The notes under the pieces were generated by a model. The model searched no databases and had not been told where the DNA came from. It saw nothing but the letters and a program-made list of their open reading frames with translations. This document shows positions 51,258-52,052 of a DNA stretch of 64,000 nt, one piece after another. The stretch comes from Escherichia phage ECO111 5-P, in the sequence record OR844765; one strand, given 5' to 3'. Positions within the stretch are counted from its first letter, which is position 1. Each line of letters opens with the position of its first letter. Both the position numbers and the translations under genes were made by a program.

Positions 51258-51563
51258 ATGAGTAAGATTATTGAAATTAAAGTACCAGAGTTTAATGATG
51301 CCAAATCCGCTTCAGATGCAATTTATAAACTTCTGAATCAAGCTGAACGTATCGAAGAAGAAGCAACAAAGATCGCAGACAAATATGCCGTATCATTTTC
51401 TGTAGGTGATTATGGTAGTGGTCGTACTTATTATCCTAAGGGTGAAATCGTATCCCAGTGGATGAAAAATGAAATTGAAAATAACGGTGGCGATGTTAAG
51501 CGTGAAGGTAATGGTTACGTTATTACTGAAGGTGCTTGGGTTTCGTCTTCTGCGTTGTGCTAA
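51258..51563 (+). CDS. Small protein, paralog A of WVSSS-x-x-C family
   Basis: 101 aa; C-terminal GAWVSSSALC; shares KIADK… and YG-G-TY-PG motifs with paralog B. Confidence 0.55.
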   Translation: MSKIIEIKVPEFNDAKSASDAIYKLLNQAERIEEEATKIADKYAVSFSVGDYGSGRTYYPKGEIVSQWMKNEIENNGGDVKREGNGYVITEGAWVSSSALC

Positions 51564-51572
51564 GGAATCGTT

Positions 51573-51845
51573 ATGTCTAAAGAACAAACCGAACTGGTTG
51601 AAGCTGTAGCAAAAATCTATGCAGCTATTGAGGCTGCCAAAGAAATTGCTGATAAACAAAACACAACATTCAACTTGTACCCAGCTTATGGTATGGGTGG
51701 AACCTATCATTCACCTGGACATCTTAAAGCCGATCTTGAACGTTGTACAAAAAACGGCTATGCTGAATGGGCTGACGTTTACCAATACGACTACAACCTG
51801 AGCCTCGAAACTGGTGGTTGGGTCGCATCTTCTCACACTTGCTAA
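51573..51845 (+). CDS. Small protein, paralog B of WVSSS-x-x-C family
   Basis: 90 aa; C-terminal GGWVASSHTC. Confidence 0.55.
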   Translation: MSKEQTELVEAVAKIYAAIEAAKEIADKQNTTFNLYPAYGMGGTYHSPGHLKADLERCTKNGYAEWADVYQYDYNLSLETGGWVASSHTC

Positions 51846-51854
51846 GGAAACAAT

Positions 51855-52052
51855 ATGTCTCGTGAATTAGATTGTGCTGTACGTACGGCAGTAGCTGCCC
51901 TGGAAAACCTGTTCCAAATTGCAACAGAAGAACGCGAAGAAGTTACATTATGGATTGAAGATAACGCAGGTCTGAATCTCCAGGACGCGATCTCATTATC
52001 CCGCAATAGTATCACTGTTCAAGGCTGGGTATCATCTAGTTATTCTTGCTAA
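51855..52052 (+). CDS. Small protein, paralog C (shorter) of WVSSS-x-x-C family
   Basis: 65 aa; C-terminal QGWVSSSYSC. Confidence 0.5.
   Translation: MSRELDCAVRTAVAALENLFQIATEEREEVTLWIEDNAGLNLQDAISLSRNSITVQGWVSSSYSC

Follow-up and report, generated by a model that had tools for sequence, protein, structure and literature searches.

Why do three small neighboring genes of a T-even phage end in nearly the same residues, and what could such an ending be for? The question arises from Escherichia phage ECO111 5-P (OR844765), in which a first-pass annotation had picked out three consecutive open reading frames (ORFs) of 101, 90 and 65 amino acids, here called p1, p2 and p3, within a stretch of 64,000 nucleotides (the window). 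Our analysis bears out their coordinates, all on the plus strand and with gaps of 9 nt (Table 1), and their C-termini read exactly as had been reported: GAWVSSSALC in p1, GGWVASSHTC in p2 and QGWVSSSYSC in p3. The data show that these genes belong to a two-component phage module, composed of one nucleotidyltransferase (NTase)-fold enzyme and one to five small acidic proteins, the only universal feature of the latter being a short terminal tag (the tail). The linkage between enzyme and tail is near-obligate and holds in both directions. We favor, with a probability of roughly 40%, the reading that the tail is a recognition and acceptor motif for the enzyme, most likely by way of O-nucleotidylylation of its invariant Ser.

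The three tandem genes

Each of the three genes is preceded by an AAGGA Shine-Dalgarno sequence, which for p2 and p3 overlaps the stop codon of the preceding gene (TGC TAA GGA A). The first two, p1 and p2, are homologous along their length (BLASTP E = 2e-4), both match phrog_899 (E = 1.2e-22 and 1.2e-18, respectively), and the internal motifs said to be common to them, IADK and YGxGxTY..PG, are found in both. The third, p3, matches phrog_4882 (E = 1.7e-36); the function of both PHROGs is unknown. Pairwise BLASTP gave E = 0.013 for p1/p3 and 3e-4 for p2/p3. A hidden Markov model (HMM) of the family recovers p2 at E = 3e-21 and p3 weakly, at E = 0.04. Profile-profile comparison relates p3 to p1/p2 significantly over the last ~15 residues only (hhalign probability 92%, E = 6e-7), although its helix-then-strand layout looks similar to theirs. 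The profile comparison that had been proposed for the paralogs thus leaves p1 and p2 as clear homologues and confines the relationship of p3 to its terminus, where the similarity is significant by alignment.

The claim of old duplications kept under selection was upheld, p1-p3 being real old paralogues. The wobble-position divergence cited for it is meaningless between the paralogues, at ~30% amino-acid identity, and is seen between orthologues. Compared with an orthologous locus (L013), the synonymous and nonsynonymous codon changes number 8 and 2 in p1, 10 and 4 in p2, and 14 and 1 in p3, an excess that points to purifying selection on all three genes.

In a six-frame translation of the window, p1-p3 are the only ORFs with a terminal W-x-x-S-x(1-4)-C, and none of the 2,387 ORFs of phage T4 ends in this motif. 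Chance similarity of the tails is excluded by the BLASTP E-values, by this uniqueness in the window and by the invariance of the tail in 141 canonical homologues. The notion that the ORFs are not genes, or that their tails agree fortuitously, draws on nothing beyond their small size and their annotation as "hypothetical protein", the only label they carry in RB69 (ORF139c/138c, 137c and 136c). It is countered by the Shine-Dalgarno sites, the preponderance of synonymous changes, hundreds of homologues and a confident AlphaFold2 (AF2) model; the homologue searches and codon-change counts have already refuted it, and we assign it a negligible probability.

In the RB69 reference (AY303349, L001 5498-5804), a frameshift splits the p1 orthologue into ORF139c (71 aa) and ORF138c, and its tail also carries an S-to-P change (..GAWVSSPALC). 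In the RB69 reference strain p1 therefore appears to be decaying or dispensable.

One tail on many bodies

Relatives of p1 were found by tblastn in 397 phage records and those of p3 in 251; they span Mosigvirus, Dhakavirus and Gaprivervirus, and T4-like phages of Klebsiella, Enterobacter, Serratia, Yersinia, Aeromonas and Acinetobacter. A word-indexed search with p1 returned 6 matches only, and an exhaustive profile search was needed. Run against 1.84 billion representatives (E <= 1e-3), it delineated a superfamily confined to phages, with at least 197 clusters when grouped at 50% identity. The members are nearly all 70-120 aa long and acidic (median pI 4.4). Proteins of the major type have an N-terminal helix that closes with ..IAD(E/K)..h.F.h; a Y-G-x-G-x-T-Y-Y-P loop follows, then a linker of variable and frequently strongly acidic sequence, and finally the tail.

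A C-terminal Cys is present in 137 of the 152 proteins that make up the listed profile matches and the earlier homologues. The 141 canonical tails all have W(-7), S(-4) and C(0), and 135 of them have Ser at -3 as well. Relaxation of the pattern leaves a core of W-x-x-S followed by 1-4 residues and the terminal Cys, so that the Cys follows the Ser at W+3 by 2 to 5 residues; no tail has Thr in place of this Ser. The conserved tail described in the first-pass annotation is therefore real, and W-x-x-S-x(1-4)-C defines the family better than the G-W-V-S/A-S-S-x-x-C given there.

Upon removal of the tail, the bodies fall into one large BLAST cluster and at least eight others, the p3 type included; these nine or more clusters are unrelated or barely related by BLAST, and all carry the same tail. 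Extra internal copies of the motif (e.g., D-W-L-N-S-S-C-Y-G-E) occur in 36 of 316 proteins, compared to 0.47 expected from shuffling, a ~75-fold excess. These patterns support the tail, and not the body, as the conserved functional element.

None of the families in Pfam, NCBIfam or PADLOC was matched by p1-p3, and the small tail proteins gave no fold match to any PDB entry. Weak Pfam matches (XkdF protease, E217 gp32, MscS) lay below the cut-offs and were discarded.

Further members, unannotated in JS98, turned up in JS98-type phages (JS98, L003 3281-3499; Dhakavirus loci L014-L016, L024, L030, L036). Among them are a fourth protein with the end ..GFWFSSSMSC and a two-motif member (..DWLNSSCYGE....WYPSSC), which brings the tail genes to as many as five in a row. 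The center of the family HMM ("h.F.h..YG..TYY") weakly matches two tail-less proteins, a 61-aa DUF7438/phrog_653 protein of the window (62835-63020, E = 0.004) and T4 Tk.1 (NC_000866 60346-60534, E = 0.009), which may be distant relatives or chance matches. Some deposited labels in this region are clearly spurious (phage F27, L002 2268-2663; VAC36, several genes of L004): the e.4 membrane protein is called a "sulfurtransferase", and the tail proteins and the NTase are mislabeled "tail completion protein", "major capsid protein" and "prohead assembly scaffold protein".

Linkage of the tail to an NTase-fold enzyme

In three unrelated metagenomic phage contigs, genes for an enzyme of ~300-320 aa lie 0-2 genes downstream of distant members of the tail family, and the enzyme is likewise near tail genes in JS98, Marfavirus, Kanagawavirus and phiAS4. 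We examined this linkage from both sides. When loci were retrieved with the enzyme, by peptide patterns that include C243 and C272, 1-4 ORFs ending in W-x-[SAPTCG]-S-S-x-x-C were present in 71 of 80 viral loci. All of these strict-tail ORFs are on the same strand as the enzyme gene and within ~2.6 kb upstream of it, with none antisense or downstream; among the nine loci without them, four or five have tails of a variant form (..WVQSSC, ..WDSSTC, ..WDGSSC). When loci were retrieved with the small proteins (motif YGMGGxYx[PG]), the enzyme was within ~1.5 kb in 39 of 41; of the two loci where it was not, one is a contig that is cut short. Collapsed at 60% identity, the enzymes form 42 lineages. 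The tail family is found in 38 of these and the next-best family in 6, and a third conserved component, be it ORF135c or another neighbor, was rejected, as no other family exceeds 6 of the 42. Small ORFs ending in Cys make up 277 of 898 upstream of the enzyme versus 8 of 638 downstream. In Stenotrophomonas phage BUCT608 (L147 4665-5460) the order is inverted, the tail genes (..DGWQASSQSC, ..LWMPSSQEGC, ..NWERSWC) being downstream of the NTase gene, and adjacency therefore survives rearrangement.

A survey of 185,579 species genomes yielded five hits only, all in contigs of metagenome-assembled genomes, and on these five hits only a bacterial (non-phage) origin or a defense-island context was rejected. 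The module is confined to virulent phages.

Does the tail need the enzyme at all? It might act alone, with the synteny reflecting shared regulation or history, as a thiol or persulfide arm, a metal-binding or redox C-terminus, a signal for a host protease or other host enzyme, or a helix cap. The AF2 model of p1 lends this some credence, as it places the tail within the fold (pLDDT, the predicted local distance difference test, ~86), with W94 in strand 93-96 and S97-L100 as a terminal helical turn that has the Ser at its N-cap. The terminal Cys also recalls the C-terminal Cys arms of TusE/DsrC. We nonetheless hold an independent role to be quite improbable. The two-way linkage extends over 42 lineages with otherwise unrelated surroundings and survives the inversion of gene order, both components are missing in T4, a structural cap would not persist on unrelated bodies with variable Ser-Cys spacing, and neither DsrC/TusE nor any PDB entry was found to be similar in fold.

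In several unrelated lineages, the module has genes for a NadV-like phosphoribosyltransferase, phosphoribosyl pyrophosphate (PRPP) synthetase or Sir2 a few kb away (L007 164-3493; Acj9, L150 5283-7834; L147 1-170; Sir2 in L096 and L149). A link to NAD+ salvage was set aside, as most lineages, and this window too, lack such genes. The NAD-ADPr (ADP-ribose) survey PMC9503650 makes no mention of the family.

The DUF7277-DUF7275 enzyme

The protein encoded at 52383-53342 comprises DUF7277 and DUF7275, found by Pfam scan at 257.7 and 95.3 bits against cut-offs of 27 (E = 8.5e-77 and 3.7e-27). The enzyme family numbers 2,116 clusters and is present in 733 of 50,697 deposited phage genomes; its carriers include many Straboviridae other than T4, Phapecoctavirus, phages of Acinetobacter, Aeromonas and Pseudomonas, and jumbo phages. 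Some deposited annotations call it a "nucleotidyltransferase". The protein has the alpha-beta-alpha-beta-alpha-beta NTase fold and carries the signature of the Pol-beta superfamily, hG[GS]-x(9-20)-D-x-[DE] with a third acidic residue on the neighboring strand: 32 diverse homologues all have G6, S7, D25, D27 and E69. These 32 sequences, of 40-75% identity, have ~60 invariant positions. Eight more distant homologues keep the catalytic signature, with E or D at position 69. With its catalytic residues intact, the enzyme is probably an active Pol-beta-superfamily nucleotidyltransferase. The helical DUF7275 half (~200 aa) has no clear counterpart. Sequence and profile searches of the enzyme against the PDB returned no matches, PADLOC returned none, and a Pfam scan at E <= 1 gave DUF7275 and DUF7277 only, with no membership in AbiEii/MenT (DUF1814, PF08843).

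The relationship to MenT in structure raises the possibility that the small proteins are antitoxin-like regulators. ORF134c, the RB69 orthologue of the enzyme, would then be a MenT/AbiEii-like effector that, for example, modifies the 3' ends of host tRNAs and shuts off host translation, and the small proteins would restrain or time it, with the tail in the active site, much as MenA and AbiEi act on their toxins. The arrangement of small acidic partner genes just upstream and on the same strand does resemble toxin-antitoxin operons, and an acidic tail with an aromatic residue and hydroxyls could conceivably mimic the 3' end of a nucleic acid. The similarity fades on closer comparison with MenT/AbiEii and their upstream partners MenA/AbiEi. 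The enzyme lacks membership in the AbiEii/DUF1814 sequence family, and its 200-aa DUF7275 domain has no counterpart in those systems. The upstream proteins match no Pfam, NCBIfam or PADLOC family and no solved fold, and include no partner of the AbiEi/MenA type; they form instead a new family with a novel fold, a strict C-terminal motif and 1-5 copies; up to four or five different tail proteins per enzyme would be unusual for antitoxins. MenAT and AbiE are bacterial defense or toxin-antitoxin modules, whereas the present module resides in virulent phages. RB69 is also viable with a frameshifted p1, although p2 and p3 could compensate. We regard the regulator reading as possible but unlikely.

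Enzyme residues that co-vary with the tail

Four lineages of the enzyme are tail-less, those of the actinophages Circinus and Miskis and of the Schizotequatroviruses KVP40 and Vibrio 1.081.O. All four keep the catalytic residues, and the same set of other residues is missing from each: T140, R165, Y172, H174, P175, C272, S277 and R281. Five additional lineages, all linked to tails (Munch, Acj9, AM101, BUCT608 and the main clade), retain all eight, which are candidates, from this comparison of sequences, for a tail-binding site.

These co-varying, non-catalytic residues would also suit tails that are docking adaptors. The tail would dock on DUF7275 and the variable bodies would bring host or phage targets to the NTase, so that the target, and not the tail, is modified. 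One tail on many different bodies, several different tail proteins per locus and the diversity of the bodies against a highly conserved enzyme are all as expected of adaptors. An absolute Ser, never Thr, together with a terminal Cys would sooner be expected where a residue reacts or accepts a group than in a docking peptide, and the internal motif repeats within one protein are hard for adaptors to account for. On balance we find docking rather unlikely.

The enzymes that lack the eight residues ("type 2" DUF7275 enzymes) adjoin a different conserved protein of ~100 aa (..GR[YF][FY]K..Y.Y[YE]S[YW]..G..), which belongs to no Pfam family (Table 1). Homology of this protein to the tail family was rejected, the hhalign probability being below 1% and the protein being absent from tail-bearing loci. 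Its association with the type 2 enzymes suggests a second, parallel partner system.

The tail as a possible recognition and acceptor motif

According to the favored reading, p1-p3 would be clients of the enzyme encoded two genes downstream (RB69ORF134c), and W-x-x-S-x(1-4)-C a short linear motif recognized by its DUF7275 domain. The Ser at W+3 would be the likeliest acceptor, receiving a nucleotidyl or other phospho-linked group from a nucleoside triphosphate or a nucleoside diphosphate-X (NDP-X) donor, and the terminal Cys and the Trp would serve as anchoring determinants in the DUF7275 domain. With the module transcribed early and various bodies sharing one tag, a single enzyme would act on several small acidic proteins, effectors or carriers, and modify or activate them as infection begins. 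The physical interaction, the Ser-O-nucleotidylylation and the biological purpose are what we infer. An enzyme-substrate relationship would explain why the tag is portable, why one enzyme has multiple clients, why the motif is repeated internally, why the Ser is strict and why certain enzyme residues co-vary with the tail. The usual chemistry of Pol-beta enzymes on hydroxyl groups agrees with it. NTases of this fold typically modify hydroxyls, those of protein Tyr/Thr for GlnE, GlnD, DrrA and MntA, and those of small molecules for ANT and Lnu. For the original suggestion that the tail could be a signal for modification or targeting, the near-obligate linkage to an NTase-fold enzyme, which the first-pass annotation had not remarked, provides strong, if indirect, support. 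To the other suggestion made there, a diversifying inhibitor family, the analysis lends no support, and it brought nothing against it.

Several points weigh against this assignment. The toxins nearest to the enzyme in structure, those of the MenT type, have tRNA 3' ends and not proteins as their substrates. Simple nucleotidylylation of Ser does not account for the invariant terminal Cys. The AF2 model of p1 packs the tail as a strand and a helical turn, and the tail may therefore be a structural cap and not a free substrate peptide. The sample of 80 loci is biased to the tail-linked enzyme type, since the patterns that retrieved it contain C243 and C272. Finally, a small metagenomic-phage clade (L051, L052, L054, L083) and the locus L034 have a tail-type enzyme with no detectable tail ORF within 5 kb; their tail genes may be elsewhere or lost. 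L034 is from a T4-like phage, and what look like tRNA genes lie directly upstream of its enzyme.

Enzymes with dedicated protein substrates offer the nearest analogies. MntA-HepT (a type VII toxin-antitoxin system), GlnD-PII, GlnE-glutamine synthetase and DrrA-Rab1 each pair an NTase-fold enzyme with such a substrate and a hydroxyl acceptor, as is proposed here, and MntA adds AMP to a partner encoded next to it. The acceptors in those systems are Tyr/Thr in internal loops, whereas the candidate here is a Ser in a C-terminal W-x-x-S...C tag on unrelated bodies. Pfam and fold searches found no HEPN, PII or glutamine synthetase homology. The eukaryotic CaaX box and the TusE/DsrC Cys arm resemble the tail as short motifs at the extreme C-terminus, with an invariant Cys, on otherwise different proteins. 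This likeness is one of analogy only, as the sequence, the position of the Cys, the organisms and the enzymes are all unrelated; the tail proteins do not have the DsrC fold with its (pen)ultimate Cys on a flexible arm that marks the TusE/DsrC sulfur carriers.

Tandem small paralogues upstream of one conserved enzyme, with repeated core motifs in some members, also recall the arrays of ribosomally synthesized and post-translationally modified peptides (RiPPs), the lanthipeptides in particular. The spacing is that of lanthipeptide rings, with a Ser 2-5 residues before the Cys, though the Ser is never Thr. In lanthipeptides a conserved leader precedes a variable core; here the order is turned round, an invariant tail following a "leader" or body that varies and is folded. 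The module comes without export or protease genes, no LanB, LanC, LanM, LanKC, LanL or LanD domain (Pfam, NCBIfam) was found in the genes of 49.5-54 kb, and there is no other conserved neighbor in the 42 lineages. The enzyme might still carry out a new protein modification on the portable C-terminal tag. In a thioether version, the Ser would be nucleotidylylated as a leaving group, beta-elimination would give dehydroalanine, and the Cys thiol would close a lanthionine-like ring on folded phage proteins, a counterpart of lanthipeptide biosynthesis at the level of whole proteins and driven by an NTase. In a nucleotide-chain version, the Ser would prime a short chain, the resulting protein-oligonucleotide conjugates serving as decoys against host immunity. 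The 2-5-residue Ser-Cys spacing, the internal repeats, the co-varying Cys/His of the enzyme and the multi-precursor layout are compatible with these versions, which even when taken jointly are a long shot.

Significance of the module

What is new is the linkage of the tail proteins to the NTase, as the genes themselves are already in hundreds of deposited genomes as "hypothetical protein". The module is of the kind in which an NTase has a dedicated small protein partner, and it could be categorically new should the chemistry prove novel. The linkage turns two DUFs and two orphan PHROGs into one unit, with one enzyme, one tag of 6-9 residues, defined catalytic residues and candidate tag-binding residues. 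The small proteins have no Pfam name, and neither component has a described function or a solved relative. PADLOC gave nothing significant among known anti-phage defense and anti-defense families, for which a literature search returned nothing relevant, and a search of the literature by gene names, PHROG and Pfam identifiers, motif and topics found no mention of the families, the motif or the linkage. The early accessory region that holds the module is of the kind that usually encodes host-takeover or anti-defense functions, and several of the phage groups that carry the enzyme are used in phage therapy. Enzymatic modification of the tag, if it takes place, would be a post-translational modification new to viruses and might supply a compact, portable handle for tagging. 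Should the enzyme instead be a regulated MenT-like effector, phages would be using a chemistry that has until now been known from toxins of bacteria.

Genomic context

The window is from an RB69-like T-even phage (Mosigvirus, Straboviridae), and its segment 50000-53500 is 97-98% identical to moha, AV118 and RB69. The tail-protein ORFs of RB69 sit between e.3/e.4 and ORF135c/ORF134c. In T4, e.3 directly abuts e.2, which makes the block an accessory insertion that RB69-type phages have and T4 does not. Neither the tail proteins nor the DUF7277-DUF7275 enzyme is encoded anywhere in the T4 genome. The features of the locus are given in Table 1.

Table 1. Positions of the module, of its neighbors in the window and of the partner of type 2 enzymes at other loci
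Feature	Position	Strand	Description
Promoter-like site, T4 early type, GTTTACG-17 nt-TATAAT	51170..51198	+	consensus scan, 10/12 matches; in the 98-nt gap upstream of p1
p1	51258..51563	+	101-aa Cys-tail protein, major YGxGxTYYP type; orthologue RB69ORF139c+138c
p1 tail, W94-V-S-S-S-A-L-C101	51537..51560	+	W-x-x-S-x(1-4)-C motif
p2	51573..51845	+	90-aa Cys-tail protein, major type; orthologue RB69ORF137c
p2 tail, W83-V-A-S-S-H-T-C90	51819..51842	+	sequence
p3	51855..52052	+	65-aa Cys-tail protein, divergent body without YGxG loop; orthologue RB69ORF136c
p3 tail, W58-V-S-S-S-Y-S-C65	52026..52049	+	sequence
RB69ORF135c orthologue, 83-aa gene, phrog_3723	52103..52354	+	intervening gene, not a conserved module component
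Partner enzyme, 319 aa, DUF7277+DUF7275 (RB69ORF134c)	52383..53342	+	Pol-beta/MenT-like nucleotidyltransferase fold and conserved helical C-terminal domain
~100-aa partner of type 2 enzymes	L093 4247-4576; L094 4100-4390; L096 2860-3156; L149 2839-3123		Streptomyces/Gordonia phages, KVP40-like vibriophages

The promoter-like site before p1 fits early expression, as a consensus match only; promoter-like sites are not enriched across the region as a whole. The spacer between the tail genes and the enzyme varies in content in other lineages, or is absent. At 51160-51257 of the window, e.3, which in RB69 spans 360 nt between e.4 and the first tail gene, is missing and leaves the 98-nt gap, as it does in moha. 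On the other side of the module, a 218-aa HNH homing-endonuclease-like ORF (53339-53995; phrog_374, E = 1.9e-59) overlaps the stop codon of the NTase gene. This ORF lies past the end of the RB69 and moha alignments (53334) and is therefore likely a mobile insertion.

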